Shown here: piece by piece, positions 1-18,590 of the stretch | Layout of the letters: each line of letters starts with the position of its first letter | How positions within the stretch are numbered: position 1 is the first letter of the stretch | Source: Nitrososphaeraceae archaeon | Lineage (GTDB): Archaea; Thermoproteota; Nitrososphaeria; Nitrososphaerales; Nitrososphaeraceae | NCBI GenBank assembly: GCA_035297365.1 | Contig: DATGZA010000038.1 | Coordinates: 1-18,729 of the forward strand | Length of the DNA: 18,729 nucleotides | Reading direction: 5' to 3' | The notes under the pieces: generated by a model | Database searches by the model: none | What the model saw: the letters and a program-made list of their open reading frames with translations, nothing else | What the model was told of the DNA's origin: nothing | Translations under genes and position numbers: made by a program

Positions 1-1
1 A

Positions 2-226
2 GGACATCTTCACAATGAAGAGAAATTATGGATAGCTTTTAGTATAATAATAAGTATAATTGGATTTTCAGCTTTTAATTCTACCATTACTCAATTTACC
101 AACAATGTCTTGGCTAATATTTCAATTGCATTCGGATTCGGATTTTCATCAGAAAAAATTCTTGAATTAGCCAGATCATTTACAACTAAATATAGATCCG
201 TTGAAGAAAGCTTTCAAAATAAATAG
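2..226 (+). CDS. 3' end of a membrane protein, truncated by the window edge
   Basis: Stop-free frame from base 2 to TAG at 224-226: GHLHNEEKLWIAFSIIISIIGFSAFNSTITQFTNNVLANISIAFGFGFSSEKILELARSF...QNK*. It has two hydrophobic segments. Not in the ORF track because the start lies outside the window. Confidence 0.7.
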   Translation, partial: GHLHNEEKLWIAFSIIISIIGFSAFNSTITQFTNNVLANISIAFGFGFSSEKILELARSFTTKYRSVEESFQNK

Positions 227-247
227 CCATATAACAAACCTATAAAG

Positions 248-339
248 TAACTGGTCCCACTTAATCGAAGGGTTCAAATCCCACACATTAGCTGAAAAAA
301 AGAGTACTGAACCCCTGTACTTTTGCTGGTCCCATTTAC
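248..339 (+). repeat. Family B repeat, copy 1 (~92 bp): tRNA T-arm-like core GGGTTCAAATCCCAC flanked by direct TGGTCCCA repeats
   Basis: Aligns along its length with the reverse complement of 9456-9547. GAAGGGTTCAAATCCCACACATT and TACTGAACCC are identical in both copies. Confidence 0.9.
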
Positions 340-446
340 TCTTTATAATAAACTTCATATTCAATATTGCCTATTTGACAGTACAATTTAAAAAAATTTA
401 TATCTAGATAGCATTATAAAATCAGAAATAGTAAACAAATATTTAT

Positions 447-662
447 TCAATTAATTAGGTTTTTTTGTTCAGACCAATATATTCTACTATTTTTGCCACA
501 CTCATTGCATTTATGTAATGTTTCAATATCGTCTCTATTAATTCTATTTTTATTTGGTTTTGTATGTATATCGTCTGGTTTTACAACAGTAAATTCAGCT
601 CCACAATAAATACAACTAAAATATTTACCTGTATTAGCTGGCATGAGAAATCTATATATCAT
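447..662 (-). CDS. Small zinc-ribbon protein (likely start ATG at 644)
   Basis: Two CxxC pairs (CIYC, CNEC) in a 65-71 aa protein, typical of archaeal small Zn-finger proteins. Confidence 0.7.
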   Translation of the reverse strand: MIYRFLMPANTGKYFSCIYCGAEFTVVKPDDIHTKPNKNRINRDDIETLHKCNECGKNSRIYWSEQKNLIN

Positions 663-811
663 CTTCTTAATCTAAATTTATCCTCTAGATTTTTTAAAAA
701 TAGTTAAGATATTTCTATATTTTTATTATTATTATTGTCATTTTATTTTAAAAATATTGATCTATTTTAAATATTTAATTTCTTAAACATTATATAGATT
801 CTTTTAAAAAA

Positions 812-884
812 GACCAAATTTTAGGTCAAATTTGTTTCACATCCCACTGCCCCCATTGCGATATTAGTTATCAAATTGAATTCA
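812..884 (+). repeat. Family A repeat, copy 1 (core 826-858)
   Basis: Core TCAAATTTGTTTCACATCCCACTGCCCCCATTG. Left arm GACCAAA-TTT is shared with copies 3 and 5. Right arm (to TCAAATTGAATTCA) is shared with copy 4. Confidence 0.9.
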
Positions 885-969
885 CTCTTAAAAATAAAAA
901 CCTACATTTTTGGTAGTTGTTCTCGCAAAAAATACAAAAAAAAGCAGAAATATATTTCTAAATTATTAG

Positions 970-1929
970 TTAAATATCAAGAAATGTATTTACCAATGTA
1001 CTTAATCTTTCAGGGTATTGAAACATTACCCCGTGACCACCATCTTTGAACTGTGCCAACCATGCCCCGGGAATTTTCTCTGTTAATATTATGGAATTAG
1101 CAGATGATAATAGAAGATCATTTGTTCCTACTATTACAAGTGTGTCTTGAGATATGTCTTTTAATTGATTACATGTTCCTTCCCAAGAGAAAATTGCATT
1201 GAGTTGTTTTTCAAGTATATCAACAGGAGGAAATTCTAAAGATGCAAATTTTTCCATATAGGTAGGATTTTGTTTAATCCAGTTTTGTGTAAATAAAAGA
1301 GGAATAAATCTAGTCTTTATATCTTCAGAAGAACCTGATAAATCTGTAAATTGTTCTACAATTTGCTGGTTTGGTGGAATCGATTGATTTCCACCACAAT
1401 AAGAAGCATATATTATTAAATCGTCAACTTTGTCTGGATAGTTTAATGTTAACTGCTGAGCAATCATTCCACCCATGGAATATCCCAATACGTCAGATCT
1501 ATTAATCTTGAGAGCATCTAATAATCCTGCACTATCTGCAGTAAATTGAGCAATTGTAAAATTTTTGAATCCTACTGAAGTGTTACCAATACCACGATTA
1601 TCAAAAACTATGACTGTATGATTTGTAGATAATCCTTTCAAAAAAATAGGATCCCAATCATTCTTTGAACCTGCATAACCCATAATCAACAAAATTGGAT
1701 CTCCTTTGCCAAAGGTTTTATAAGAAATATCTATATCTCCAACTCTAACTTGTTTGGTTGGAATGTTCTCTAATTTGATGATATTAGTATTACCAGTATT
1801 ATTGTCTGAATCTATAGTCTGAGCATCAATTAAAAGTATCCCGTCGTCGTAATTATAATTACTAATAATTCCAAAACTAAGAATACTTATTAAAGAAATA
1901 ATTACTAAAATATTGAATTGTTTTTTCAA
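970..1929 (-). CDS. Alpha/beta-fold hydrolase with N-terminal signal peptide or membrane anchor
   Basis: Nucleophile elbow G-Y-S-M-G, DNRGIG motif, acid residue in GTND, catalytic His in GGHG, hydrophobic N-terminus. Confidence 0.92.
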   Translation of the reverse strand: MKKQFNILVIISLISILSFGIISNYNYDDGILLIDAQTIDSDNNTGNTNIIKLENIPTKQVRVGDIDISYKTFGKGDPILLIMGYAGSKNDWDPIFLKGLSTNHTVIVFDNRGIGNTSVGFKNFTIAQFTADSAGLLDALKINRSDVLGYSMGGMIAQQLTLNYPDKVDDLIIYASYCGGNQSIPPNQQIVEQFTDLSGSSEDIKTRFIPLLFTQNWIKQNPTYMEKFASLEFPPVDILEKQLNAIFSWEGTCNQLKDISQDTLVIVGTNDLLLSSANSIILTEKIPGAWLAQFKDGGHGVMFQYPERLSTLVNTFLDI

Positions 1930-2301
1930 CTTAATTTAGATCATTTGTTCATACAATTTAAATATTTATTCCTTCCATAAACGTAAAATCTTCCCTTTCT
2001 CTAGTATCAATAACAAAGATATCGTCAATGATTCTGTTGAAAATTGTTCCTCTTTGGCATTTAAGGCAGTAGAATATTAGTTTAATGATTATTATAACAT
2101 TTAATATTGTTAATAGAAGAATTTTATTTACTATCTCTCCCTCTCTTCAACGGTCTCTATTAAATTTATAATACTATCGATTTTCTTTCACTTAGCAGAT
2201 TAGCAGGGATATGCTGAAATCTTGGAATCACTTCGAAATAGCATTTTTTGTAATCTCGTTTTCTACATCTAATTTTATTTTGTCAGGTAGTAAAAAAATC
2301 T

Positions 2302-2510
2302 CTCGAATATAAGAAAAGTAATATTTCTTCAGAACATCATCAAAATAACAATTTGAAAGTTGTAATAACATTTGGCAATTATAGGTAAAGATAATTCATT
2401 TTATGACATTAACAACAAAGAACAAGAACAAATTTTAGAATTTCTTAATACTAAAATTAAGTCATGATGAAGATCCATATAAGAGATGCGTAACAACTTG
2501 GAACAAGTTC
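2302..2510 (+). pseudogene. Frameshifted N-terminal fragment of a Nitrososphaeraceae-type tyrosine integrase
   Basis: Manual translation across two frameshifts: LEYKKSNISSEHHQNNNLKVVITFGN / IGKDNSFYDINNKEQEQILEFLNTKIKS / DEDPYKRCVTTWNK. This matches my recollection of the N-terminus of thaumarchaeal integrases (..SE.HQNNNLK..FLDTKIK...DPDKRWITTWN). The catalytic domain is absent. Confidence 0.7.
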
Positions 2511-2598
2511 ACGAGGTCCAATATGGGATCACCATATCCTGATGTTTCTTTAAAGTGGTCGAAATCAATTGCTAAAATTACCTAGTAATTGAAAACCT

Positions 2599-3000
2599 GT
2601 GGAATTGGACAACGGGAGGGGTCAACCGGCATATAAACTCTACCGTAAGATCACACTTAACATTTTTTGCCATTCAACACTACTTCTTAATAATAAAATA
2701 ATAGCGTTAAGTTCAATATGCTTTAACTCTAAAAACGAAAGATTTATTGTCAATCATACATTCCGAAATGCTATGGAAGTACGATTACATGATATAAGTA
2801 TTCAGTCCGAAGAACAATTTGATAGACTCAATGTTGTTTTATATGATGATTCAGTTAGCAACATAATATCAGATAAAATAATAGAAGTTCAAGTAAAAAT
2901 ATTTACTCGATGAAAATTGACATTGGTAAAAATGGAAATAAATTAGTAAATATACTTTATAGTGATAAAATAAGTTATAAAAAAGAAAAAAATAATCGTG
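2599..3000 (+). pseudogene. Possible decayed MCM-helicase-like N-terminal (Zn/OB-fold) fragment; joins ORFs 2599..2913 and 2910..3128
   Basis: C..N...F....FRNAMEVRLHD...DRLNVVLYDDSVSNIISDKIIEVQVKI resembles the MCM OB segment (F.D.Q.I.LQE...PRSI.V.L.DDLVD...PGD.V.V.GI). It appears to continue by frameshift into KIDIGKNGNKLVNILYS. No AAA+ domain is present. Confidence 0.4.
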
Positions 3001-3033
3001 ACAAATATAATATAAAAATGAGGAATGATTCAC

Positions 3034-3844
3034 TCAGAGAAATGGAGAAACAAACTTCAAAATACATTCGGCCATATCTGCAGCAAATTTTTCACGGCAA
3101 TACCGATTATCTCGGATACAATGAATAACCTCAATCTGTATTGCCACTAGTCCTGGTTTGGTTCGGTTAGTACTGCCATACGTTTTTATAGTGTATCCTC
3201 CGTCTAGCGGGTGATTCTCCAGTTCTTGACTTTCATTTTCTGGGAATACTCTTATTCTTTTTGTTGCTAATAACGGTATTAGACCATTTTTGTGACTCCA
3301 GAAATAATTAGGATCTCTTTCGGTTAATGCTTGCCTTGAGCGTGTTTGATCAGTCCCAATAAGTACCTCAATAAAATTACGTTCGGGGTCCAGTTGTAGG
3401 TGACTTTTCTTCCATTGTACCATGAATATCAAAAAGAAAGGCCAAACCTTTGTCACCTTCAGGAAGCATTTCTTCAATTTTTTGTGAAATTTCATTGTGA
3501 TATTTTAGATATTCTTCCTTAGCCTTAACGCTTGACGGTTCGTTAACGCTTGACGGTACAAATGCACATCTTTCGTTTCTATTATAATCAATAAATTCTT
3601 TCTTAAATTCTGCGTATACTGTATATGGATCTTTTCCGCTTAAACTTTGTATATTTCTAACGATTTCCTCAGTAAGCTTTTCAGTCAATAAATCATTATC
3701 TTCACTAAAACCTTGTCCATCCTCAGGACGACAGATATTAGCAGGAAAGTGAATTGGTCCTCTCTTTATTATGGGCGGATTTGTTGTTGTCCCATCATTT
3801 TTCCCATTATGTGCACATGTAAATAACAATTTTATTTTTGGCAT
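3034..3844 (-). pseudogene. N-formylglutamate amidohydrolase-like gene split by one frameshift (~3377-3410)
   Basis: ORF 3377..3844 has LFTCAHNG, D..T, DYNR, Y..YH and FLFDIHG. The overlapping ORF 3034..3495 supplies IGT, GGYTIKTYG and AIQIEV...R. Together they make one FGase-fold protein. Confidence 0.75.
3525..3557. repeat. Short in-frame tandem duplication (TTAACGCTTGACGGT x2, 18-bp period)
   Basis: Seen directly; encodes PSSVNE-PSSVKA. Confidence 0.85.
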
Positions 3845-4169
3845 ATAATCACATATTTAATGAATAATTGCATATTAATAAGAATTTACCAGACATTTAG
3901 TTAGCAGCTATAAAGAATTTGACACTTTCTCTTAATCGAAATATATTTCTATAATATAATAGAATAGCTGCAATAAGATCTATCACAAAACCAATCAGGA
4001 TTATAGATTCTGTCAATATTCTGATTTTAGTTTGAAAAAAATCTTTATTCTTACAAAGTCAAAATGTGATGGTGTTCTATGACATTTTCAAGAATTAGAT
4101 GGAAGATTAAGCATAATTAAACTGGTTTAATGGAATAGCATTCTTGGTAATTTTTATATAAAAAATTGC

Positions 4170-4218
4170 AAATACTCTTTTTAGGTCAAATTTGTTTCAC
4201 ATCCCGCTGGCCTCATTG
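4170..4218 (+). repeat. Family A repeat, copy 2 (core 4186-4218)
   Basis: Core TCAAATTTGTTTCACATCCCGCTGGCCTCATTG. Left arm AAAT(A/C)CTCTTTTT is shared with copy 4. Confidence 0.9.
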
Positions 4219-4273
4219 AACTCGGGGTTCTAATCCTATTTTCAGAAGAATTCATGGAGCAACAATGAAACCT

Positions 4274-5542
4274 TTACAAATTAAAATCGAATTTCAAAGG
4301 CTCATTATATGCCAACTTTTCCAGCATTTTTCTTTCCCCTTGTTCTATTAATTTTTTTGTTGTTTTAGTTGAGAAATCTGCATTATTTAATATTGTAGGC
4401 GACTCTAATTCACTTCTTGTAATTCTTGTAACAGATTTTATTTCTGCACCATAGTTTTCAATTAGATTAGCATACTCTTCTTTTATTTTTTTTAATTCCT
4501 CTCCTTTGATTTTGATTTTGTCGGCATGTTTTTCGAATATGTCATATAATTTTTCTATGAGGTTTATATGTCTAGTTATTAACTTTGACAATTGTATATT
4601 GTACATATCTTTGTCACAGAATAGAATATCTTTATAACGACTAATGACTTCAACCATATTTGTTGGAAGACGATCTATTTTTTGGGGATAGTTTTCGACA
4701 ATAAAAATATTTTTATCATTTCTTGGAGATACAAAAAGAACCTCTCTAATTGGTGTATTACTAAGTAGGCTTCCATCCCAACCATATACATTGTCTTCTA
4801 CCTTAACCCAAGGAAATCCATAAATTGGATAACCCGAACAGGCTAGGATATGTTTTGCCTTAATTTCTGTTAGAGTATTATCAAAAACAAGAGGTTTTCC
4901 AGTCATAACATTTACAGCAGTTATAATAAGTCGGTAGACATTTGGTTTTTCTTCTTGTCTGGCAGCAAGATTTAATTTTTTATAATCGATATACTTTTCA
5001 AGTGTTTTTTCGAGTGGCGAGTGATCATATATATAAGTCCAATTTTTGGGATCAAAATAACTACCCTCATCCATTTTTCTTATTAGACTAGAACTATTTC
5101 CCAACTCCCACCTGGGAACAAACATTTTTGGAACCCCAAAAATTGCAGCGTTTACAGAAGCTGACGATATTTTTTTGACCAAATATTCTTTATTATAGGA
5201 GTCCCACTCATACATCCATAAATCCGGAATAATCTGCATATTACTTTCACTTACCTCAAGCCAAAAATCCTCTAGATCTTTTTCTGGTTGATCGCTTTTA
5301 CTACCTGCAATAATGGCAGCATTTACAGCACCTATAGAAGTTCCAGCAACTATGTCTATATTTATTTTTTGTTTTACTAGTGCCTTAAACACACCGCAGG
5401 CAAAAGATCCAAAAGAACCACCTCCTTGCATAATAAGAACATTTTCTAAATCTCTTGTTCTTTTATGTCTTGGTGGACTTTCTTCTTTTATTTCATAACT
5501 CATATCTATAATATCTTTTTCAAAGACTAAAAATTTTCTCAT
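4274..5542 (-). CDS. Patatin-like phospholipase (likely start ATG at 5503)
   Basis: Gly-rich loop QGGGSFG, catalytic G-T-S-I-G, and WDGS (variant of the DGG motif). Confidence 0.93.
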   Translation of the reverse strand: MRKFLVFEKDIIDMSYEIKEESPPRHKRTRDLENVLIMQGGGSFGSFACGVFKALVKQKINIDIVAGTSIGAVNAAIIAGSKSDQPEKDLEDFWLEVSESNMQIIPDLWMYEWDSYNKEYLVKKISSASVNAAIFGVPKMFVPRWELGNSSSLIRKMDEGSYFDPKNWTYIYDHSPLEKTLEKYIDYKKLNLAARQEEKPNVYRLIITAVNVMTGKPLVFDNTLTEIKAKHILACSGYPIYGFPWVKVEDNVYGWDGSLLSNTPIREVLFVSPRNDKNIFIVENYPQKIDRLPTNMVEVISRYKDILFCDKDMYNIQLSKLITRHINLIEKLYDIFEKHADKIKIKGEELKKIKEEYANLIENYGAEIKSVTRITRSELESPTILNNADFSTKTTKKLIEQGERKMLEKLAYNEPLKFDFNL

Positions 5543-5594
5543 TTGTATTGTTAATTATATTGTTTTTACTATCGACTCTCCTCTAGAAATGTTT

Positions 5595-5634
5595 GGGAAC
5601 GAAATTTCTGTCAAATTTGTTGCACACCCCACAG
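5595..5634 (+). repeat. Family A repeat, copy 3 (degenerate, 3'-truncated; core from 5611)
   Basis: GGGAACGAAATTTCTGTCAAATTTGTTGCACACCCCACAG versus copy 5 GGGACCAAAATTTGTGTCAAATTTGTTTCACATCCCACTG. Confidence 0.8.
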
Positions 5635-5749
5635 AAAGAGATATAAAAATGGTATTAATTCATTGATTTATCAAATAACAAAGTCCTTATCTAACAAATC
5701 TCTTTAATAATATACTTGATACAACAACAAAAGAGGCAATTGGTAGAAT

Positions 5750-5985
5750 GGTTTTCATGATTCCAAAATAGCTAGACTAGCAATGGTTGATCTTGAGAAT
5801 AATCAACCTTATGTTGTTACAGTAGTATTTGTTTTTGATGGTAATAATATTTTCATTCCAATAGATGATAAACCTAGAAGAGTAAATTCAAACCAATTGA
5901 AAAGAGTAAAAAATATTCAAAAAATCCTAATGTTTCTTTTCTAATAGATATATATGATGACAAAGACTGGAATCTCTTATTTGAT
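5750..5985 (+). pseudogene. PPOX-class (pyridoxamine 5'-phosphate oxidase-like, probable F420-dependent, Rv0121-like) fragment
   Basis: IARLAMVDLENNQPYVVTVVFVFDGNNIFIPIDDKPRR...QLKRVKNIQK, then a frameshift in an A-run, then NPNVSFLIDIYDDKDW. This fits the ARLAT..P.VVP.VF..D.KP..R..NI..NP.VS.L.D.Y..DW signature. No start codon and the C-terminus is lost. Confidence 0.8.
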
Positions 5986-6086
5986 GATCCTATTAAAATT
6001 ACCCTCTTGTTATTGTAGTTATCATCTTATTTAGATAACTAGTTGAGTTATGATCCATATTTTCATTCTGCTAGAAATTAATCAAA

Positions 6087-6776
6087 TTAATTTCTTCCTA
6101 ACATTTCTATTACTTTTTGTGCCGCAACAAATGACGATGCAGGATTCTGACCTGTAATCAACTTTCCATCAGTTACAACAAAGGGTTTAAAATTTTCAGC
6201 TTTTTCAAATTTCCCACCTAATTCTTTCATACGATCTTCTAACAAAAATGGAACTACTTTCTCTAGATGTACAGCACTTTCTTCACTGTCTGTAAATCCT
6301 GTTACCTTTTTACCTTTCAATATTGAATTTCCATCTTTATCTGTAGCCTGTAATAATCCTGCTGGGGCATGACATACGGCACTAACAAATTTTCCACCAA
6401 AGTAAAAATCTTCAACTAATTTTTTTAAATTTTTATCTGTTGCTAAATCCCACATGGGTCCATGACCTCCTGGGATAAATAATGTATCATAGTCGTTAGC
6501 TGACACTTGGCTTAATACCAACGTATTTGCTAACTTTTCTTGAGCAGATTTATCTTTTTGAAAACGTCGTGTAGAGTCAGTCTGCCATTCTTTTAGATTG
6601 CTCTTTGGATCCATTGGAGGTTGTCCCCCCTTTGGAGAAGCAATTGTCACACCGTATCCATTATCTATAAACTCATAGTAGGGAGAAGCAAATTCTTCTA
6701 ACCAAAATCCTGTTTTTTGTCCAGTATTTCCTAATTGATCATGAGAAGTCAAAACAAAAAGAACTTTTTTCTTCAT
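6087..6776 (-). CDS. DJ-1/PfpI family (class I glutamine amidotransferase-like) protein, Hsp31/glyoxalase III-like
   Basis: TGFWLEEFASPY (conserved Glu), PGGHGPMWDL, AVCHAP (Cys-His), LITGQNPAS. Confidence 0.93.
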   Translation of the reverse strand: MKKKVLFVLTSHDQLGNTGQKTGFWLEEFASPYYEFIDNGYGVTIASPKGGQPPMDPKSNLKEWQTDSTRRFQKDKSAQEKLANTLVLSQVSANDYDTLFIPGGHGPMWDLATDKNLKKLVEDFYFGGKFVSAVCHAPAGLLQATDKDGNSILKGKKVTGFTDSEESAVHLEKVVPFLLEDRMKELGGKFEKAENFKPFVVTDGKLITGQNPASSFVAAQKVIEMLGRN

Positions 6777-6796
6777 AAAATTTTTATTCTGTTTAT

Positions 6797-6806
6797 TATA
6801 TTTAAG
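6797..6806 (-). promoter_or_regulatory. Candidate archaeal TATA box for the DJ-1/PfpI gene (leaderless transcript)
   Basis: Minus-strand CTTAAATATA centred ~25 bp upstream of ATG 6776. The AT-rich background limits specificity. Confidence 0.4.
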
Positions 6807-6823
6807 ATTTAAAATAATACTTT

Positions 6824-7138
6824 GGTACTGTCAATTATTCTGTTAGCTATGACAATTAGGAAAATTATTCAAGATTTAGAACTAAACCAAGTTTTTTGGG
6901 AGATTAAGGTTAACTGTTGATGTAAAGCTTACATTCACATTCCTATGAAAAGGGCATAAAAAAGAACCATTGAATATGTAAATGATAGAACAGAAAATTT
7001 TGACTTTAATCTTTCCCATGTCTACAACTGGATTCAATTATTTGTATGTATGCACAATAGTATAAGAAGGTCTCATCTAAAATTTCGATTATTGATGTAC
7101 CTTTTAGGAGGTGGTACAAGTATATCCTTAACATTGCC
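6824..7138 (+). mobile_element. Internally deleted IS6-family relic with a C-terminal transposase fragment (~6938-7114)
   Basis: HSYEKGI/KRTIEYVNDRTENFD..NLSHVYNWIQLFVCMHN matches the archaeal IS6 transposase C-terminus as I recall it. Imperfect terminal inverted repeats: GGTACTGTCAAT at 6824 and the reverse complement GGCAATGTTAAG ending at 7138. Confidence 0.7.
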
Positions 7139-7202
7139 TATAATAATATACAAGACAAAATAAATAGATACCAACTTTAATCCATGATTACTAACTAATT
7201 AA

Positions 7203-7277
7203 AAATCCTCTTTTTGAGTGAAATTTAATTCATATCCCACTGACCCCATTGTGACAATAGTTCTCAAATTGGATTCA
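7203..7277 (+). repeat. Family A repeat, copy 4 (core 7219-7251)
   Basis: Core TGAAATTTAATTCATATCCCACTGACCCCATTG. Right arm TGACAATAGTTCTCAAATTGGATTCA matches copy 1 CGATATTAGTTATCAAATTGAATTCA. Left arm matches copy 2. Confidence 0.88.
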
Positions 7278-7446
7278 TTTATAAATATTAAAGACAATTG
7301 ATCTTTCTAATTAATCAAAATATCCCAGTCTAGAAACAATTAAAAACTTTTTTAGAAACAGAGAGAATATGTAATGCTTATTTCATCATTCACTTCCATG
7401 ATGTCTTTTTGAGATTAATATTACTATTCTACTAATTAATTATAAC

Positions 7447-7752
7447 CTATTTACTATCAACCGCCTCTATTATCATACCTATATTACTAACTATGTAATT
7501 TGATACATATGGCAGAGCTGTGTTGATGTCTTTAGTTGAAAAACCTTGTTGCCTAGCAATAGATCTGAAATTTGCTCTTATACCACCAATTACATATCCT
7601 ATGTAAAAATCCGCATTACCCCTCACTAGTCTATCTTAGCCAATTCTTTCAAACGTGTCCTCAAGTTGATCTCTGGCAGCTTTAAATTCTGCTATTGTAG
7701 CATTAAGTGCCTCAAAAGATAATATAAGCATTTGATTATCATTGAATGTCAT
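7447..7752 (-). pseudogene. 101-codon hypothetical gene with one in-frame TAA (7636-7638)
   Basis: MTFNDNQMLILSFEALNATIAEFKAARDQLEDTFERIG*DRLVRGNADFYIGYVIGGIRANFRSIARQQGFSTKDINTALPYVSNYIVSNIGMIIEAVDSK*. One frame from ATG to TAG with protein-like composition. Confidence 0.7.
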
Positions 7753-7925
7753 ATTAACTAACTTCAGTGAGAGGAGTTAATATTTTTCGTTTCAAAGCCA
7801 TTGAATTTTAATTCTTCATTTATCTTTTTAAATCGCACCTTCTTAGATAAGCTTTCAAAATAATTGCCTATACACAAAATACTTCTTAAAATCTTGACAA
7901 GAAAAAAAGAAAATTTGTGATATGG

Positions 7926-8540
7926 TTATTTGCTGCTTTTATTTTCTAGTATTGTTGTACCTGCAGTTGTCATTGACTGCCCTTGCAATTTCATTGGTTC
8001 AAACACGATCCCAAATAGTGGTTTGTCACCAAAATGATTTTGTAATTTTGACTGATCTAACATGACGTTAACAACTTCATGATTATCGACTTTTATTGTG
8101 ATAGGAACTTCATTAACTGGACTATTTTTCATAGTAACTGTCACTGTTCCTTTGTATACTGGCATATTGTCTTCTTTGGTTGCCTCTTTTAATACAAAGT
8201 TTGAAATCTCATGCATATGTTTTTCTATACCATCAGGTTTCACCATATGTAATGTGGCATCGAACAAAGCTTTATTAGTTTCGCTAAATTGTGTAGTGTT
8301 TATAACGTTGGTTTTAAAATGTCCTGATATTAACCATTCTGTTTTTCCTGCTTTATCTTGAACCATTCCAATAATTTGTCCATAACCTAGTCCTTTTTCG
8401 TTCATTCCTTTATTATATCCAATAGGGTAGGCAAAGGTCATTTTATTTAGTGATGGCGCTGCGAATATTAAAATGAACGCTACTGTGACACTTGCATAGA
8501 CTATCGTTGATTTATAGGTTTTATTTAGCATTAATAGCAT
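7926..8540 (-). CDS. Secreted or membrane-anchored hypothetical protein (thaumarchaeal beta-rich family)
   Basis: N-terminal hydrophobic segment; WLISG..F..M.K.DG...H.H.ISNF..GTVTVT..HFG..P.FG pattern; TATA-like sequence at ~8554-8565. Confidence 0.8.
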   Translation of the reverse strand: MLLMLNKTYKSTIVYASVTVAFILIFAAPSLNKMTFAYPIGYNKGMNEKGLGYGQIIGMVQDKAGKTEWLISGHFKTNVINTTQFSETNKALFDATLHMVKPDGIEKHMHEISNFVLKEATKEDNMPVYKGTVTVTMKNSPVNEVPITIKVDNHEVVNVMLDQSKLQNHFGDKPLFGIVFEPMKLQGQSMTTAGTTILENKSSK

Positions 8541-8650
8541 TGTGTCTTGATTGTTTATATATATTAGTAAACCAAGTTAATATATATCATTACAACAACG
8601 TCTGTTAATTTAAGCAGCAAAAGATATAGCTAAGAACATTCTGTTTATCA

Positions 8651-8806
8651 TATGAAATTAAATTTGAAAGAAATAAAACATCTTCTTTTATTGTAATGTA
8701 CTCTATTTATCTATACTTAGTTTAAGTTTAAAAAAACTGTAAAGCATTCAGGCCATTTAAAGATCGAAAACGAAGTCATGTTGCTGTTTGGGAATGGATT
8801 CAATGA
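8651..8806 (+). mobile_element. IS6-family transposase N-terminal fragment (pseudogene)
   Basis: YEIKFERNKTSSFIVMYSIYLY / LSLKK..KAFRPFKDRKRSHVAVWEWIQ* matches the archaeal IS6 HTH region (MY.LYLYF.GLS.R...AL......RSHV.VW.WIQ). Confidence 0.75.
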
Positions 8807-8913
8807 ATTCAAACTATTATTCTTCTATGGTGATAGTTATTACACTTCTAACATGAACTACAAATATAAATTCTGATATTATGCATATAATAGCAGGAAA
8901 AAAGAATAGAAAT

Positions 8914-9302
8914 ATGTCTACACTTTCAAAAACTCTTACATTACGAATTCCCTCCAATATAATTTAACATGCTTTAAATGATACAAGATTAGAAATCCTT
9001 TTTTCTGAATTTTTCATGGGCATAAAAAGAAAATTATATCTGATAAAATAAATAAGGAGATTAGTTTTAGTACAATAACTGAAGGAGAACAGATTGAAAT
9101 TATTGAAACATTCAAATTTAAAATATCTAATAATAACAGAACAATTGTCGAATATAATAATGAAACAAAAAGTATAGAAGAAAACAATATAATATTAGAA
9201 TCTATAGTACATACACATGTAGCTAATATTTTATATTCACTTTTGATACTTGAGACGGGATATATTAATGGAGTATTAGAAAATAAGGAAAAAAATAGAT
9301 AA
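8914..9302 (+). pseudogene. Hypothetical gene (possibly SRPBCC/START-like) with an in-frame TAA (8965-8967) and a frameshift near 9030
   Basis: MSTLSKTLTLRIPSNII*HALNDTRLEILFSEFFMGIKRK / IISDKINKEISFSTITEGEQIEIIETFKFKISNNNRTIVEY...ILYSLLILETGYINGVLENKEKNR*. The listed minus-strand ORF 9014..9307 is its antisense shadow. The fold assignment is a guess. Confidence 0.65.
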
Positions 9303-9455
9303 TTCAATATGAAAAAGGAAAAAGTGTAGAGATTGCAAACTTTAAGATTTTATGAGCAATAGGATAGATTCATATCTGCTTGGTGCTATTAACTAAATGG
9401 TATTACATTTCAAATAACAATATTAAATATGTTACCAAATCAATTAAAAAATATT

Positions 9456-9547
9456 GTATATGGGACCACCTAATCACAAATGGGTTCAGTAATGTTATTT
9501 AGCTAAATGTGTGGGATTTGAACCCTTCTATAAAGTGGGACTAGTTA
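9456..9547 (-). repeat. Family B repeat, copy 2 (inverted relative to copy 1)
   Basis: Reverse complement reads TAACTAGTCCCACTTTATAGAAGGGTTCAAATCCCACACATTTAGCT...TACTGAACCC...TGGTCCCATATAC. Confidence 0.9.
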
Positions 9548-9780
9548 ATATTTTTTATTTCTTTCCTAATTTAACAGATTATCAATAATAGATCAGTTAT
9601 ATCAAATTCTCAAGATTAATCTGTTCTGAATTGTACCCAATCTAGTGCACCGGTTAAATAACCATCAAACAAACAATATAACTGAACTCCTCTGCATCTA
9701 CTAATATCAGGAAATACTTAGGTCATTCAATCCAATGCTCCATATACAAATATTACATACTATGCAATTATTACCATTAA

Positions 9781-10968
9781 GTGGCTACAGCAAAACAAAT
9801 CTTAATTTTAGGAGCAGGTTTTGGAGGATTGGCATCAGCCAACTTATTACGAAAGAGTCTTCAAAAGGAAGAATGTCAAATTACTGTCATTGACAAAAGC
9901 AAGTATTTTATGATGGGCCTTGTGAACTTATGGATACTAAATGGAACTAGAAGATTGGAGAATTCCCAAGTTGCTTTGAAAAAGCTAGAAGCTAAAGGAA
10001 TTAAATTTTTGAACGATGAAATAATAAGGATAGATCCATCTGAAAATAGCGTTACTACTAAAACCAACGATAATAAATTACAATACGATTATTTGATAAT
10101 AGCGTTAGGTGCAGAACTTGTACCAAAACGAATCAATGGATTTGAAAATAATGGAAGTTGTTTTAACATATATGATGCTCAGCAAGTCCCAAGTCTGCGA
10201 GAAAAAATACTTTCTCTAACAAGCGGTCGTATAGTAATCTGTATAGCGGATATTCCATATAAATGCCCCCCAGCACCTTATGAGGTGTCATTATTGATCA
10301 ATGATATATTGATTAAAAATGAAACAAGAGATTCCATTGATTTGGATATATACGTACCAACACCAATTTCATTACCTGTAGCTGGAGCAAATATAAGTCA
10401 AGATGTTGTCAACTTGCTCAACGATAACCACATCAATTTCCATCCTCTACATAAAATAAAAAAAGTATTAGATAAAAAAACAATAGAATTTGAAAATGGC
10501 AGTAAGACAAGCTATGAAGTATTAGTACTAATTCCTCCTCATCAAGTTCCTCAAATCATCAAGAATTCTGATCTGCTAGGAGATGGCGATCAACATTGGA
10601 TCAATGTTGACAAATTTACCCTTAGAACAAAATACAAAAATGTCTTTGCAATAGGCGACGTAACCGAGATTAGACTTGATAAAACCACAACCATCCCTAA
10701 AGCTGGAATATTTGCAGAGGGCGAAGCAAAGGTAGTCAGCCAGCAAATTATCAATGAAATTAAAAATAACAATAACAATAAAGCACTTACAAAGTTTGAT
10801 GGAAAAGGGTTTTGCTTTATGGAAATAGGAGATAAAAAAGCTGGATACATCTATGCAGACTTCTATAATGAAAGAGGTCCTACTACGAGGCTTGATCCAC
10901 CGTCAGACGAGTTCTATCAAAAGAAACTTGATTTTGAAAGAAGCAGATTAAACGAATGGTTGCTGTGA
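9781..10968 (+). CDS. Sulfide:quinone oxidoreductase-like FAD-dependent oxidoreductase
   Basis: GAGFGG Rossmann motif, YDYLIIALG, YKCPPAPYE (Cys), NVFAIGD, PKAG, GFCFME (second Cys). This is the SQR/FCSD superfamily pattern. Confidence 0.88.
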   Translation: MATAKQILILGAGFGGLASANLLRKSLQKEECQITVIDKSKYFMMGLVNLWILNGTRRLENSQVALKKLEAKGIKFLNDEIIRIDPSENSVTTKTNDNKLQYDYLIIALGAELVPKRINGFENNGSCFNIYDAQQVPSLREKILSLTSGRIVICIADIPYKCPPAPYEVSLLINDILIKNETRDSIDLDIYVPTPISLPVAGANISQDVVNLLNDNHINFHPLHKIKKVLDKKTIEFENGSKTSYEVLVLIPPHQVPQIIKNSDLLGDGDQHWINVDKFTLRTKYKNVFAIGDVTEIRLDKTTTIPKAGIFAEGEAKVVSQQIINEIKNNNNNKALTKFDGKGFCFMEIGDKKAGYIYADFYNERGPTTRLDPPSDEFYQKKLDFERSRLNEWLL

Positions 10969-11297
10969 TAATAATATGACTTTAGTCCTAACACCTTCTT
11001 TTTTTTTAAGTTCTACTATTTAACCAATAAATGCTTGTTTTTCAAAATTGGTAAGAGAATAAAAATTCATTTAATATATAATATTATGTAAAAAAATTCT
11101 ATTTTAACATAGGTATATTGAATATGTTACCTAGAATTACTTACTTTGTAAAGATTTGCATGAGTATATAAATGTTAACATGTTAAACCTGGGGCATACA
11201 ACTGTTATATAGCCAAGATATCAGATAAGGAGTAAGGTCAAGTACAGACCACAAAACCGTAGAGAATAATATAAAAGAACTGTACATTAACACGAAT

Positions 11298-11425
11298 GTG
11301 TTATCAGTATCTTGTAGGGACGTAGGAGTAAACTGTGACCTTAAGGAATTGGAGAAACAGAAGAAGAGTTAATGAATAACTTGGTAGACCATGAATTAGA
11401 TAAATACCAAAGCGATGCTAAATAG
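11298..11425 (+). pseudogene. DUF1059-type small metal-binding protein, frameshifted near 11341
   Basis: (M)LSVSCRDVGVNCD / GIGETEEELMNNLVDHELDKYQSDAK* fits the C.D.G..C.....G.TEEE......H signature. Confidence 0.75.
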
Positions 11426-11467
11426 CAAGCAATATCCAAAAATAGATGTTTGTTATTGAGTATTCAC

Positions 11468-11977
11468 ATGGATAGCAATGAGCCATTTGCTTTATATCCT
11501 AGGACAATAAATCATATAGCAGTTAGTGTTTCTAATCTAGAGGAAGCAATAAAATGGTATCAGGATATACTAGGGTTTACATTAATAAAGCAACCTATAG
11601 AATTTGTAGCAGATGATTCCCTGACTGGGATGGCGGTCAAAGATTTTCATGGTCCGAAGTTAAAGAGAATGAAAATAGCTTGGTTAAGTTCCGCCAATCA
11701 GGTAGGATATGAAATTATTGAATATATTGAGCCTAAAGTCGAAAGACGGGCAGATAGTTTTGAGTACTGGAAATAAGGAATTACCCATATTTCTGTTACT
11801 GATCCAGATATTGAAGGACTGTGTAAAAGAATCTCTGAGAGTGGAGGAAAGCAACGAAGTAAGATTTGGGAGATAGTTCCGGACAAGCATTATAAAGTAG
11901 CCTTTTGTGAAGATCCATTCGGCAATATCATTGAAATCTATGACCATAGTAACGAGCAGTTAATACTCTCTCTTTAA
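11468..11977 (+). pseudogene. VOC/glyoxalase (lactoylglutathione lyase-like) gene with a premature TAA at 11774-11776
   Basis: PRTINHIAVSV...GYEIIEY...FEYWK*GITHISVTDPDIEGL...GGKQRS...FCEDPFGNIIEIY...SL*. The same frame continues past the stop and supplies the second His/Glu metal-ligand pair. Confidence 0.9.
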
Positions 11978-12333
11978 GTATCCTACGACCATTTCTTTTT
12001 AATCCAATATGGTCTTGGTATTCTAATAGATTGCAAAGGGCACTTTTCATTTACAATCATTCCTCAGAGAATTTCGGACTTCATAGAATTTTATTATTCA
12101 GGATCAGAATTTTTATATCAATTCTGTTTCTGAAAAATTGCCTCTCCTTTAGGGACAATAATTACAACACTAGGAGTAATTGTAGGAAGTATTGTGCGGT
12201 CAGTAAATGGTTCCTTACCCAGAAAAAATCGGAAAAAGATGAGAAAAAATATGATATATATCAATTTTTAATAAAACTAATTTTTACTAGAATTATTCAT
12301 TATGAAAATTAAAATAAATAGAAAAAATGAAAA

Positions 12334-12412
12334 GGGACCAAAATTTGTGTCAAATTTGTTTCACATCCCACTGGCCCCATTATATAAGCGGATTCATATA
12401 CTCAAATTGGAT
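12334..12412 (+). repeat. Family A repeat, copy 5 (core 12350-12382)
   Basis: Core TCAAATTTGTTTCACATCCCACTGGCCCCATTA. CTCAAATTGGAT at 12401-12412 is also present in the copy 4 right arm. Confidence 0.9.
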
Positions 12413-12823
12413 ATTAGATGTTGAAATAATAAGAGGAAGAAAATAGATAAATGCCATTTCTAGATGATCGAATAATTTAATTTCAAATAAACGGGTCCAT
12501 TCATCTGAGAAGAAAATTGACTAATTATCATCTCTTTTTTTGGTTAAAATTAAATATTTTAATTTGTCATAATAATTAAAAACTAATATTATTTTTCATT
12601 ATGTGTCCTAGTCTTGGATAGCCATTTAACTCTGCATGTGTTGCCAATTCTCCAAAAGCTCATCCAGTTCCCTTTTATAATGGTTCGATATCCTGGTTAG
12701 ATAGTGACTTTGTCTTTCTCTTCTCTTTAATCAATTTATTATACAGCACGTTTAAAAAAAGATTAATACATTCATCAATTATATTTTAATAGATTCTACT
12801 TTCGAATCTTAAATTAATTTTAT

Positions 12824-13756
12824 ATGTATTATCTTTTCATGTTAAATCACTTTATTATTACCTTCATTACGTTGCTCTTAACAATTTTTTTTATAACCGC
12901 TCTAGTGGTAGAATCAGTTATAGCAGCACCAAATACAATTGATATTCGAAGTAAAGAGAAAAAATCTACCGCCAATGATGATGATTTGATTGTAATCTCA
13001 AATATTAATTTACAAAATATAGAAAAAACAGGATTTCTTAGAGTAGTTGGTTTTATAAATGCGCAAGAATTTTCCAAGGATATTCCTTTATCAAATATAA
13101 GCGAATCAACAATGAAATTAACGGTTAAATTTATAGCGGATAGAGAGAATGAGATAGTTAACGCTAACTCACCAGATGAATTTTTTATTTGTGTATATCA
13201 TGTTAAAAATCAACACGATCCAATACATCATTTTGATTGCAATGAAGGCGATATAACGTCTACTACTGGACCTACCAAGGCGAATCTCTTCAAGCCGTTA
13301 TCGCAAGTATATCAAAAGAGTATAGACTACTATAATTTGTATGGAAAAACCCAGATAACTTCGTTTTCTTTATTACGTAATGATACTATTAGTTCCAATG
13401 ACAGTATTAATCCTAATCCGGATATCAATCCAACTAATCAAGAGAAAGTAAAGGTGAAGGTAATTGTACCATTAGAAGATAGAAAAGACACGAAAAAAAT
13501 CAAGGTGATGGCAATGCTAAAGGGCCAGATCCAATCAGAAGTGGTAGATGTTCAAAAGGAATTCGATAAAATTGGTGGTTATACAATAGAAAGAATATTT
13601 GCTTTTGACAGAGACACAGATATAGGGAAAATACAACCTGGAGATAGATTTCATGCATGTGTATCAGGAGAAGGACTAAAACCGCCAGAAGGGACAGAAT
13701 GTGAAAAGAGAATAATAAAAGGTCTGGATAAAGTCAATTCATTGGCGGCTAGATAA
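12824..13756 (+). CDS. Secreted hypothetical protein with two internally repeated Cys-pair domains
   Basis: Signal/TM segment; repeat 1 (LRVVGFINAQ...DEFFICVY...DCNEG) and repeat 2 (IKVMAMLKGQ...DRFHACVS...ECEKR) are separated by an N/P/S-rich linker. Confidence 0.85.
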   Translation: MYYLFMLNHFIITFITLLLTIFFITALVVESVIAAPNTIDIRSKEKKSTANDDDLIVISNINLQNIEKTGFLRVVGFINAQEFSKDIPLSNISESTMKLTVKFIADRENEIVNANSPDEFFICVYHVKNQHDPIHHFDCNEGDITSTTGPTKANLFKPLSQVYQKSIDYYNLYGKTQITSFSLLRNDTISSNDSINPNPDINPTNQEKVKVKVIVPLEDRKDTKKIKVMAMLKGQIQSEVVDVQKEFDKIGGYTIERIFAFDRDTDIGKIQPGDRFHACVSGEGLKPPEGTECEKRIIKGLDKVNSLAAR

Positions 13757-13796
13757 AATCTGGATAAAGTCAATTCATTGGCGGCTAGATAAAATC
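13723..13796 (+). repeat. Perfect 36-bp tandem duplication spanning the stop codon of the 12824..13756 gene
   Basis: TCTGGATAAAGTCAATTCATTGGCGGCTAGATAAAA at 13723-13758 and 13759-13794, followed by TC. Confidence 0.97.
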
Positions 13797-14007
13797 AAAG
13801 TTTTATTTGTTTTTTTGTATTTTAATAAAAGTTATAAAAAAATATTATAAAATGTGTTTCATAAAAACAAGATTTTTTATAGATCATCAATATTTATAAT
13901 CAAAAACTTTATGCATAATTTAATTTAATGAAGTATATGTGAATGTAAATAACCCGTCTAAATTATGTTACCCAAATTTATCAAAAATAGAATATACTCA
14001 TAATGAT

Positions 14008-14462
14008 TAATCAGTAGGTGCTATTGTAAATCCTTCCTGCTAGTAGAGATTATCCAGTAAATCTTTTACCCTTTCTTAAAACTTCTCTTCTTTTAATGCC
14101 ATATTTAGACGTACTCTTCTTGGTACCTTATCCCTGAATCCTCACTTTTGAAGTAATGTATTGATGAAAATATGATGGTATTATACTCCTCTTTCTCCTA
14201 TTATGACATCTTTAACCTGCTTTGTAATCCAATGTCCTGCTTGCTGATAAGAGATCCTTTTTTATCCTGTATGCTATATCATGTGATACATCTCTGCCCT
14301 CTTCTCTTTATCCTTCTTTAACCAATCTGATATTCATGTCCTGCTTCTGTGAATATTTCTTGCTACCTGTGCAGGAGTCTATTTTCCATCTAATAAATTT
14401 AAAACAACTAATATTCTTTCTCTTACATACATATCATGTTCTGATCAGTATAGTTTTTCAAA
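14008..14462 (-). mobile_element. IS630-family transposase relic (HTH / winged-helix part), with multiple stops and frameshifts
   Basis: EKLY*SEHDMYVRERILVVLNLLDGK*TPAQVARNIHRSRT*ISDWLKK ... WITKQVKDVI...GV*YH......LLQK*GFRDKVPRRVRLN..LKEEK ... EGFTIAPTD. This matches the IS630 W....V...I....GV.Y.......L...GF..KVPR motif leading towards the first catalytic Asp. Confidence 0.8.
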
Positions 14463-14605
14463 TCTTGTTTTTGAAATTATACTGGTACTAGTAGTAATAA
14501 ATAAGATATAAGATGTTAATAGTAATATGTAATACCTATTCTGAAATAAAATGTATTCCCCATATAGGAAAATAATTTCAGGATACTTATGCTAATTAGT
14601 ATAGT

Positions 14606-14875
14606 TTATGTTTGAAACATCATCTTCTTATCTTTACTAGATCTTTTCCATATTGAATATGGTGTAGGTCCCTTCATCATGCTAGTTTTATTCATCTGTT
14701 TCATCATTTTCTGCATCTGGATTGGGTCCGTCATCATAGCTCCCGGCATAGGAGTTTGCTGTCCCCCCATCATTATTCCTGGATTTATCATACAGGGTAT
14801 GATACCCATTATAATCTGATTTCATATCATCATCGGTCCCATCATCATACATGGCATTGCCATACCTGGTCTCAT
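14606..14875 (-). pseudogene. Fragment of a methionine-rich protein with an internal TGA (14822-14824), overlapped out of frame by the upstream gene
   Basis: MRPGMAMPCMMMGPMMI*NQIIMGIIPCMINPGIMMGGQQTPMPGAMMTDPIQMQKMMKQMNKTSMMKG... Confidence 0.65.
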
Positions 14876-15992
14876 GTGGAGGTACTATTTCTCTTATTTC
14901 TATATCATAGATATCAAATTTGAAATCATTTGCCTTGATTATAACTATTGGAGAACCCCACGTAATTGCTTGACCATCTGTCTCCGCACCACATACTTTC
15001 ATAGCATCACCCCAATTACCATTATCTATTACTTCATGTACTTTTTTATAAGGTCCCTTGCCACCATTTTCTACGTCTACCCAAGTTTCTAGTTTTACTG
15101 CGGTATCGTTTATATTGTATATTATACCTTTGAAACCTACTATTTTATCATAAATGTCTCCCACGCTTAAGCTTTGGTTATAGCGTTCCCATTCATAATC
15201 AATATGAAATTGTTCTTTTTTCATTCTTATGTTTCCATCATTAGATATATTGTGGTGGTAACTTGACCCACCACAAAAAAATTTGGGTTGACCATCAGAT
15301 ATTTTATATTCATTATCAAGTTGACTATGCGATATTGATCTGGTTACTATTGAAAGAGAATGCTGTTCTCCGTTAGAACGTGATGAATCAAGGAGTTTAA
15401 AAATCAAAGTCACTTCTATATTTTTCCAATCACTTGGTTTATACCAATGTCCTATCTCTTTTAATTCAGAAAAATTCCAACTTTGAATTTTATTACCTTT
15501 AGACATGTTATTTAATTCTGATGGCTTATCGGGTAGTATTCCCGCATCCATGGTATGAATGTCTATCCTTGGTCTGCCAAAATCTATTCTCCAACTTCCA
15601 TCAATATTTTGCTGTGTAAAAATATTTTCTTTATCACTTTTATCTACTTGAACAAGATCATTTGGATTGTTGATATTCAATCTATATGTTTCTCCATTTG
15701 AAATAGATTGGTAAATCTTTGGTATTATTATTTTTTTTATAGGAAAGAATGGTCTGTACATGGGATCTAGTGCAGTAGAATATGATTCATTTTTATCCTT
15801 CTTTTTATCCTTCTTTTCTATTTTTTTGTTTTGTTCATCTTCATCTTCTTCATTATCCGGTTCGGCATAGATGGACAAAATGGATAGGGTATTATTAGAA
15901 TGATTAAAATTAAAAATAATACCTATGATAATGATGAAAATTGCAATAAAAGATAACCAAGATATTGCAATTTCTGTATTTCCAAGTCTCAA
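14688..15992 (-). CDS. Secreted or anchored hypothetical protein with a probable lectin-like beta-sandwich domain; the last ~60 aa are probably spurious read-through
   Basis: TM segment, charged linker, then WKNIEVT..CGGSSYH..KEQFH..GFKGIIYN..VKLETWVD..DNGNWG..C...ITWGSP..REIVPP, a pattern I recall from a thaumarchaeal surface-protein family. Function is inferred. Confidence 0.78.
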   Translation of the reverse strand: MRLGNTEIAISWLSFIAIFIIIIGIIFNFNHSNNTLSILSIYAEPDNEEDEDEQNKKIEKKDKKKDKNESYSTALDPMYRPFFPIKKIIIPKIYQSISNGETYRLNINNPNDLVQVDKSDKENIFTQQNIDGSWRIDFGRPRIDIHTMDAGILPDKPSELNNMSKGNKIQSWNFSELKEIGHWYKPSDWKNIEVTLIFKLLDSSRSNGEQHSLSIVTRSISHSQLDNEYKISDGQPKFFCGGSSYHHNISNDGNIRMKKEQFHIDYEWERYNQSLSVGDIYDKIVGFKGIIYNINDTAVKLETWVDVENGGKGPYKKVHEVIDNGNWGDAMKVCGAETDGQAITWGSPIVIIKANDFKFDIYDIEIREIVPPHETRYGNAMYDDGTDDDMKSDYNGYHTLYDKSRNNDGGTANSYAGSYDDGPNPDAENDETDE

Positions 15993-16512: not shown

Positions 16513-16608
16513 GTGGGTTTTATTGGCTGGTAACTATAAAGGGTTAGAACATTTCTCAGTAGAGAAACTAGATAAAGTTTTTTAATTATATTTTTTAAGA
16601 TTAACAAA

Positions 16609-17976: not shown

Positions 17977-18299
17977 TTTTATCAAATAATTTTTATCATA
18001 TTGTTGCTTTTTATGATTTATATAAAAGATATTGAAGAATAATGTAAACACAATATTTTAAAAATTATATTTATCTATGAATAATTTCTAGTCAATAAAC
18101 TATTGAATAATAGATTTTATTTAATTATTGAATTTATGTGTCGTATAGTGTATATCATTTCTTAAAACACATAATGAAATTGAATCTAAATAATAGTAGG
18201 GCAATACTGTTATGCAAAAATTATCTTAATGTTTAGTATATTATAAAGTAATGTTTATTACCTGCTTGTAGTTTATTAAGTTCCAGTCCTTTTTTAGAA

Positions 18300-18590
18300 T
18301 CAATATCGCAATGGAAATGACTGGCCACATATTGTATAAGGGAACACTAAATTATATTAACATTTTCAATAAACACAAAAATGATATATTATTTTCACCA
18401 AGATAAGAATTTCCTAAATATTCAGAAATTGTCAATATGAAAGATATCAAAACTAAAACTAACTCTATCATTATAAGAAACGAACAATGGGTTTTCGATT
18501 CTCTAGAATGAAATTATAATTCCAATGAAGTATATGATGCTAAATAAGATACATTTACTATTACTGGCAAATTTAAAGGTAATTCCTAAC
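18300..18590 (+). pseudogene. Possible decayed gene of unknown family
   Basis: One frame reads protein-like with scattered stops: AMEMTGHILYKGTLNYINIF...SPR*EFPKYSEIVNMKD...NEQWVFDSLE*NYNSNEVYDAK*DTFTITGKFKGNS*. No family recognised. Confidence 0.3.

Follow-up and report, generated by a model that had tools for sequence, protein, structure and literature searches.

We propose that the short repeats in the stretch of DNA analysed here are probably attachment (att) junctions between integrative elements, decayed and non-autonomous remnants included, that accreted in tandem at the 3' end of a single tRNA-like gene. The stretch, referred to below as the window, is the whole of contig C38 (18,729 bp) of a Nitrososphaeraceae genome (G000; 2.52 Mb in 110 contigs, 30.5% G+C). 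A first-pass annotation of the window had reported co-oriented copies of a 33-bp core between unrelated accessory genes, and had suggested that they are sites at which a tyrosine recombinase, possibly encoded elsewhere, captures or shuffles gene blocks, with tandem tRNA-targeted islands named among the known parallels, and that they belong to a system different from those already described. The first of these ideas is borne out by our analysis: the core is the copy of a tRNA end, a co-oriented array of such copies is anchored at the tRNA-like gene in the congeneric genome G017, a recombinase gene adjoins several of them, and gene blocks change neighbours at the core. The second is not, since these same features, together with a break in synteny at the tRNA 3' end, are those of tandem tRNA islands, and they support assigning the island to a known kind, built by classical tRNA-att tandem integration. 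What is unusual here is the scale and make-up of the island, with at least 16 junctions over 81 kb, short units lacking an integrase, modular arms and an odd anchor gene.

The five copies described in the first pass start at 826, 4186, 5611, 7219 and 12350. As reported, all lie on the + strand with spacings of 3360, 1425, 1608 and 5131 bp, and all are intergenic relative to open reading frames (ORFs) of at least 60 aa. The 33-bp consensus matches at 826 without a mismatch, at 12350 with one and at 4186 with two, and none of 200 dinucleotide-preserving shuffles produced a match; the copy at 7219 has four mismatches, and that at 5611 follows the consensus over its first 22 nt (two mismatches) and diverges beyond. 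The 33-bp core is therefore real but falls short of the true repeat, which is ~90 nt long according to nhmmer, and further junctions at 248-289 and 18292-18329 and an inverted copy at 9506-9547 had been missed. The window thus holds seven co-oriented junctions (at 248, 826, 4186, 5611, 7219, 12350 and 18292) plus one inverted arm. An nhmmer profile made from the five copies and their flanks finds 25 places genome-wide, 21 of them at E < 0.001, and these are clustered on 8 of the 110 contigs (five on C38, seven on C78, five on C18, three on C72, two on C22 and one each on C13, C11 and C63). Alignment of all copies reveals a three-part build consisting of a left arm, a tRNA-derived core and a right flank. 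The left arm comes in three types, namely M1 (the left half of the annotated 33-bp core), M4 (248-289, and inverted at 9506-9547) and M5 (18292-18329), and the right flanks fall into about six short types, labelled a to f. The junctions of the window are the following.

248..289, + strand: att-like junction with an M4 arm; 15 nt (GGGTTCAAATCCCAC) in common with the T arm of the anchor gene, then divergent.
807..898, + strand: att junction 1; left arm 807-833, tRNA-derived 834-855 (22 nt), type a flank 856-898.
4162..4259, + strand: att junction 2; tRNA-derived 4194-4215 (2 changes in the last 13 nt), type b right flank.
5588..5632, + strand: att junction 3; left arm and tRNA-derived 5619-5632, cut after CCCAC, then an unrelated type f flank.
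7198..7292, + strand: att junction 4, with a degenerate arm; tRNA-derived 7227-7248, type a right flank, no integrase.
9506..9547, - strand: inverted copy of the M4 arm inside the block that bears a sulfide:quinone-oxidoreductase (SQR)-like gene.
12328..12424, + strand: att junction 5; tRNA-derived 12358-12379, the last 15 nt equal to the tRNA-like gene, type c right flank.
18292..18329, + strand: att-like junction with an M5 arm and a degenerate core; an empty site relative to contig C72 and a contig of metagenome run X15.

The right 22 nt of the core are a copy of the end of a tRNA-like gene on contig C63, from its T loop through the 3' strands of the T and acceptor stems to the discriminator. 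The copy at 12350 is identical to this gene over its last 15 nt (15/15) and at 20 of 22 positions overall, and those at 826, 4186 and 7219 show one or two differences in the last 13 nt. Allowing up to two mismatches, the terminal 13-mer occurs 22 times in the 2.52-Mb genome, with four occurrences in the window contig compared to 0.16 expected. ARAGORN finds no tRNA in the window, and an Rfam search of its whole length gave no match at E <= 1. At type a junctions such as G000:C22:465 and G017:C8:107391, the 13-nt core is bracketed by a 5-bp inverted repeat, TCACA ... TGTGA, which has a mismatch on one side in the window copies; from its sequence, the bracket is a possible pair of core-type binding sites for the recombinase.

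The anchor is a 96-nt tRNA-like gene at C63:71127-71222, and its contig ends 336 nt beyond it. The same gene lies at C8:91508-91603 in G017, which is assembled in 10 contigs, and directly behind it are 16 further profile matches on the + strand, reaching to 172,900 (81 kb) at spacings of 0.8-18.8 kb (median ~3.5 kb), with a single weak match on the - strand (E 0.0027) in this interval. Over the 160 kb examined in G017, 16 of 16 matches to the 13-mer are on the + strand, the gene's own end counted. Five out of five further congeners examined have the anchor gene at 88-100% identity. In two of these, G012 and G001, the contig ends within ~300 nt or so of the gene, just as in G000, which is to be expected if a repeat-rich island follows. 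On its upstream side, G014, G016 and G018 share synteny with G017; the homology of G014 stops at 91604, one base past the gene, and the genomes differ downstream. A 22-nt arm-plus-core pattern (up to three mismatches) is present in 18 of 18 genomes of the genus, at 1 to 43 copies each, and in 0 of 12 genomes from other genera of the order. Copies on one contig mostly share a strand: by a hand tally among the matches listed (150 of 217 rows, with G010 and part of G017 left out), this holds for 25 of the 28 contigs that carry more than one copy.

In the anchor gene, the acceptor stem and T arm are canonical and, like the GC-rich extra arm, invariant among eight aligned homologues. The place of the anticodon arm is taken by a hairpin, ATACC...GGTAT, and congeners differ in the sequence and length of its inner 10-15 nt. 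This hairpin offers no 7-nt loop, ARAGORN assigning it one of 8 nt; the gene was not among the matches of a genome-wide search with the Rfam tRNA model, and cmscan of the locus gave only a tmRNA-clan match of 20 bits. Behind the gene in G017, the 71 ORFs of at least 90 aa at C8 90-176 kb (the array and some surroundings) include enzymes, sensors, copper proteins and two IS transposases, and no replication, conjugation or virion genes, indicating that most units are not autonomous now. A unit encoding an NHL-repeat protein that is whole on G000:C72 is split on G017:C8 (172935-174116 and 319568-321619), with ~145 kb between the halves and DDE transposase genes just behind the first, and the island of G017 may extend beyond 320 kb.

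A conserved ORF adjoins the type a flanks, and its sequence profile and modelled structure identify it as a predicted tyrosine recombinase of a divergent family. The copy at C78:16593-17705 encodes 370 aa (protein P0001). Its match to Pfam PF00589 has an E value of only 0.054, below the Pfam cut-off, and it matches PHROG 1 (integrase) at E 3.7e-5 and NCBIfam XerA_Arch at E 6.4e-10, the latter with 39 bits against a cut-off of 220; it is 26% identical to the genome's own XerA-like protein on C26. An alignment of 16 homologues has R173, H299, R302, H325 and Y333/Y334 in every sequence (16 of 16), and the catalytic Lys was not located. With an AlphaFold model of the protein (pLDDT 73), the best Foldseek matches in the PDB are XerA (5hxy), XerH, Cre, IntI and Tn1549 Int (best E 3.4e-7, probability 1.00); the TM-scores are low, 0.35-0.55, as is usual for two-domain proteins. 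Neither phmmer nor a 16-sequence profile found a recombinase match for the integrase among PDB sequences. The family is large, with 2994 database proteins at E <= 1e-5 out of 4033 candidates, mostly of 410-430 aa, and some of them carry PF00589 or are named integrase. Among IMG/VR viral contigs, 83 pattern matches for relatives of the integrase were obtained and none was confirmed by tblastn, giving no link to a known virus.

The position of the recombinase gene is consistent with its acting on these sites. In the metagenome-assembled genome L046, the complete tRNA-like gene is directly followed by a type a flank and the integrase gene, which is the classical attL-int layout, and at L042, L043, L048 and L049 a junction precedes the integrase gene. 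The gene also adjoins an att-like site at C78:17775 and at 107.4 and 155.7 kb in G017. The type a flank of junction 1 is of the kind that precedes an integrase gene at other loci, and no integrase follows it in the window. In a more distant Nitrososphaeraceae metagenome-assembled genome (L047), a similar flank stands behind another tRNA-like end and leads to an intact integrase of 377 aa that scores 29.7 bits with PF00589, above the cut-off of 27.1. A 167-aa ORF and then a family B DNA polymerase (PolB) come after this integrase (L047:4724-5968), so that the locus possibly represents an integrative element of this integrase family that replicates itself. The remaining integrase copies of G000 are N-terminal relics (C18, C22 and C25) or are cut by a contig end (C64). 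At C78:16056-17705, an inverted partial copy on the + strand (aa 18-202, 52% identity) overlaps the 3' end of the 370-aa gene, which is on the - strand, an arrangement of facing copies which suggests that a rearrangement truncated the gene.

The genes carried between the junctions were assigned with Pfam, and the calls of a hydrolase, a patatin, a DJ-1 protein, an SQR-like protein and a VOC protein made in the first pass all held.

970..1929, - strand: alpha/beta hydrolase (PF00561, E 1.6e-20).
4274..5542, - strand: patatin-like phospholipase.
6087..6776, - strand: DJ-1/PfpI family protein.
9781..10968, + strand: SQR-like flavoprotein (Pyr_redox_2/FCSD).
11450..11776, + strand: glyoxalase/VOC family protein.

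Comparison of the window with 30 relatives by BLAST shows that this cargo moves in blocks. All 18 congeners match, in pieces only, and the shared pieces (244-857, 904/964-1921/1983, 4268-5632, 6080-6818, 7218-11282 and 12317-18339) lie on different contigs with different neighbours. The site at 248-289 is the left boundary of block 244/249-857/858, which is found in G010 (two contigs) and on G000:C78. The alpha/beta hydrolase block (904/964-1921/1983) stands alone in other genomes, as does the DJ-1/PfpI block (6080-6818) in several; G017:C8 is collinear with 7218-11282 at 95% identity, and G014:C56 with 12317-18339. The patatin unit (4268-5632) is found again in at least six other genomes. Its homology in G005, G003 and G013 stops at 5631/5632, and in these genomes and G000 the unit keeps its M1 arm with four different sequences past the core. 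In G005 it has junctions on both sides, followed by the flank which comes after 12350 in the window. The SQR-bearing block has the opposite orientation on G010:C301, where block 244-857 and a junction precede it. Within 1-12500, 26 of 124 alignment ends fall in junctions (4.8% of the sequence), compared to 6.0 expected, or 11 of 63 compared to 3.0 when ends within 10 nt are merged; these counts, based on the BLAST rows listed, are descriptive, as the congeners are related and not independent. The remaining ends are mostly at gene borders. The exchange of neighbours at the core is in line with the first-pass idea of captured or shuffled gene blocks.

A further case is the site at 18292-18329. 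It is single in the window, and on C72 the same 38 nt flank an insert of 2812 bp, with 95-97% identity between the two contigs on both sides. The insert starts with a type b flank, and its only gene encodes an NHL-repeat protein; it has no integrase. Run X15 likewise has ~2.85 kb at this site, on a contig of 21.7 kb. The two forms are an empty and an occupied site with their ends at the junction, even if C72 belongs to another strain. We considered whether an NHL unit on the other side of the 12350 unit in G014:C56 could serve as proof of transposition and dropped it, as the match covers only the core of the gene at 89% identity and there are many paralogues. Contigs from four metagenome runs (Logan contigs of X2, X5, X6 and X15, from which rare variants are dropped) also break at the junctions: contigs of X5 and X6 diverge leftwards at 252, one X6 contig diverges past 4204 in junction 2, contigs of X2, X5 and X6 break at 12352-12380 in junction 5, and all four runs have loose contig ends at 9511 and 9546, at the inverted M4 arm. 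The only large difference from the window is in X15, which has 363 other letters in place of 2790-4271, the right end being the border of the patatin unit.

In our interpretation, the island was probably built as follows. Each junction would be composed of the conserved arm that closes the unit to its left, 13-22 nt copied from the tRNA 3' end, in which crossover would occur, and the flank that opens the unit to its right. A tyrosine recombinase belonging to the same family as the copies on C78 and in relatives would recombine the arm-core-flank site of a circular element with the tRNA end or with an existing junction, and each new entry would push older units away from the tRNA. Most units would then lose their integrase and persist as short cargo blocks, and recombination between junctions would delete, invert and re-insert blocks to give the mosaic seen between species. 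The window would be an internal stretch of such an island without an integrase of its own.

Several observations sit less comfortably with this scheme. In G000 the stretch between the tRNA-like gene and the window is unassembled, C63 ending where it does, and we infer their linkage. The anchor is an atypical tRNA-like gene, perhaps a tRNA with an intron, perhaps a landing pad that only resembles one. Copies occur on both strands in three contigs (G000:C78, G003:C248 and G003:C388). The integrase gene on C78, the only long copy in G000, is ~50 aa shorter at its C-terminus than most homologues, and in the G017 array both copies, at 107.5 and 155.8 kb, have broken reading frames. The first-pass annotation had placed a tyrosine-integrase relic inside the array, and no integrase or relic was found in the window by a six-frame PF00589 search of the genome, by an HMM of the associated integrase family against the six frames of the window (best E 0.11) or by tblastn of the window with four integrases of G000 (best E 1.0). 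The short flank types b, d and f recur before unrelated cargo, and type d, which resembles the sequence behind the tRNA of G000 and of G018, is nevertheless present at four places within the array of G017. This pattern is not predicted by simple serial integration and points to later exchanges between junctions or capture of flanking DNA. Close strains keep the order of units across junctions (X5 over 2334-7795; X15 over 4272-13722 and 13759-18306), indicating that rearrangement is not frequent, and excision products, in the form of joints from junction to junction, were absent from the contigs of the four runs, in which rare forms are invisible. Finally, C72 may be a second strain in the bin rather than a second locus.

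The window also has features that bear on other matters. The first-pass annotation spoke of many pseudogenes, and two intervals were checked for this: 5757-5990 matches Pyridox_ox_2 weakly (E 0.0084) and its reading frame is broken, and 2599-3844 holds short overlapping ORFs without family matches. The former is a block of ~235 nt that is present at 84-87% identity in most congeners, often in multiple copies, and again at G000:C20:9074-9310. A perfect 36-nt tandem duplication (13723-13794) lies at the end of ORF 12824-13756 and is single-copy in contigs of runs X5, X6 and X15 (joint 13722>13759). On the - strand, 14688-15992 is an ORF of 434 aa without a family match; its central part (14878-15726) has many paralogues of 70-86% identity, several per genome in every congener, and contigs of other runs diverge inside the ORF.

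The same data can be read in other ways, the most substantial being an integron-like platform in which cassettes of arm, core and flank, lacking an integrase, are excised and re-inserted in trans at a tRNA-anchored array, most units never having been autonomous. We regard this as unlikely, even though many units are of 0.8-3.5 kb with one cargo gene and no integrase, arms are conserved beside unrelated cargo, the ends of the patatin unit agree between several genomes, one site occurs with and without the single-gene NHL unit, and replication, conjugation and virion genes are missing from the G017 ORFs scanned. What counts against it is that integrase genes lie inside units beside their own att sites and not at a fixed end of the array, that the intact relative at L047 has a replication gene as autonomous elements do, that gene orientation is mixed within units and that the junctions have no attC-like fold. 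The decay of autonomous elements would, moreover, explain units without an integrase equally well, as has been described for tycheposon islands. A bolder version, which we rate as doubtful, would make the island an archaeal counterpart of integrons and tycheposons, with a tRNA-like gene of variable anticodon region maintained chiefly as a landing pad, and single-gene cassettes, each with one of a few standard arm and flank modules, captured, excised and re-ordered in trans by a large, mostly unannotated recombinase family; if it were true, soil Nitrososphaerales would possess a dedicated system for gene-cassette exchange. An integron proper was considered and fails, given the lack of an integrase at the tRNA end in G017, fold energies at shuffle level and ORFs on both strands. 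The structured-RNA or attC-like reading was likewise dropped after three junctions folded on both strands gave z-scores of -0.30 to +1.24.

Explanations that need no site-specific recombinase fare worse than tandem integration at the tRNA-like gene. It is very improbable that the repeat is a dispersed sequence of tRNA origin (SINE- or MITE-like, or a plain duplication) that now serves only as a substrate for homologous recombination. Its 40-90 nt with conserved arms would suffice for homologous exchange, direct repeats of 38 nt mark the empty/occupied pair, some copies are inverted, and the run contigs contain no excision product, but the repeat has no terminal inverted repeats or target duplications of its own, its copies form a co-oriented cluster behind the tRNA-like gene instead of being scattered, a tyrosine recombinase gene repeatedly adjoins them, and breakpoints fall inside the 13-22 nt tRNA-derived core even where the arms differ. 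A MITE or IS end had been named as a possibility and fails for a composite of arm, tRNA end and flank whose copies are clustered and co-oriented. That the motif is a regulatory or terminator element at a fixed position relative to transcripts is scarcely credible: all copies are indeed intergenic, and the type a flank probably includes the promoter region of the integrase, but the copies lie 38 to ~650 nt from the nearest genes, which may be on either strand and have the copy before or behind them, neither strand of the junctions folds with a better energy than its shuffles, and the motif is a tRNA end without an Rfam match.

If tandem accretion at the tRNA-like gene is correct, this soil Nitrososphaerales genus keeps a large share of its flexible genes behind a single tRNA-like gene, where hydrolases, redox enzymes, sensors and copper proteins would be exchanged in small blocks with the large recombinase family described above as the likely driver. 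This would also explain why such regions assemble poorly in metagenome bins, and partial tRNA ends with conserved arms would provide a simple marker for mapping accessory genes.

The island shares features with several known systems. Like integrons, it has co-oriented short cargo units between sites of a tyrosine recombinase, with accessory cargo that varies between strains; unlike them, it has tRNA ends with arms, mixed ORFs and integrases inside units, where integrons have IntI and attI at the head of the array and folded attC palindromes. Streptococcal cis-mobilizable elements (CIMEs) are att-flanked units without recombination genes that stand in tandem with integrase-bearing elements and could be mobilised by them, much as the units here may be, and their accretion differs in involving a bacterial host, conjugative elements and few units per site.

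Closer at hand are the integrated mobile genetic elements (iMGEs) and cryptic integrated elements of thaumarchaea. As far as the accessible parts of two surveys describe them (Krupovic et al. 2019, PMC6563490; Badel et al. 2021, PMC8371274), integration in archaea targets the 3'-distal part of tRNA genes, introns included, thaumarchaeal att sites are short (median 17 bp), sites are re-used to give tandem elements, integrases are lost and many elements have no recognisable virus or plasmid genes. The tRNA 3' target, short att sites, tandem re-use and integrase loss are thus held in common. The tandems described in those parts consist of two elements, whereas at least 16 junctions over 81 kb with units of 1-6 kb are seen here; the integrase copy of G000 also scores below the Pfam cut-off, and the anchor is an atypical tRNA-like gene. 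Searches of the open full-text literature (which excludes subscription papers and supplements) turned up neither an account of this island nor one of tycheposon-like arrays in archaea, whether ammonia oxidisers or others.

The tycheposons of Prochlorococcus (Hackl et al., bioRxiv 10.1101/2020.12.28.424599) offer a close parallel. According to the available portions of that preprint, these tyrosine-recombinase elements enter tRNA genes, newcomers push older elements inward, and the resulting islands contain partial tRNAs, fragmented integrases and niche-adaptation cargo, with rearrangements confined to the island. On the same portions, tycheposons differ in their bacterial host, in using seven tRNA sites per genome with usually one or two live elements, and in sharing a replication module, where here a replication gene was seen once, in a relative (PolB at L047); their mobility was shown by PCR and culture, and the array described here is known from its sequence alone. 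The resemblance extends to the tRNA-anchored build-up itself, with its partial tRNA ends, broken integrases and accessory cargo, and our interpretation, if correct, would extend the tycheposon pattern of island building from Prochlorococcus to the archaea.

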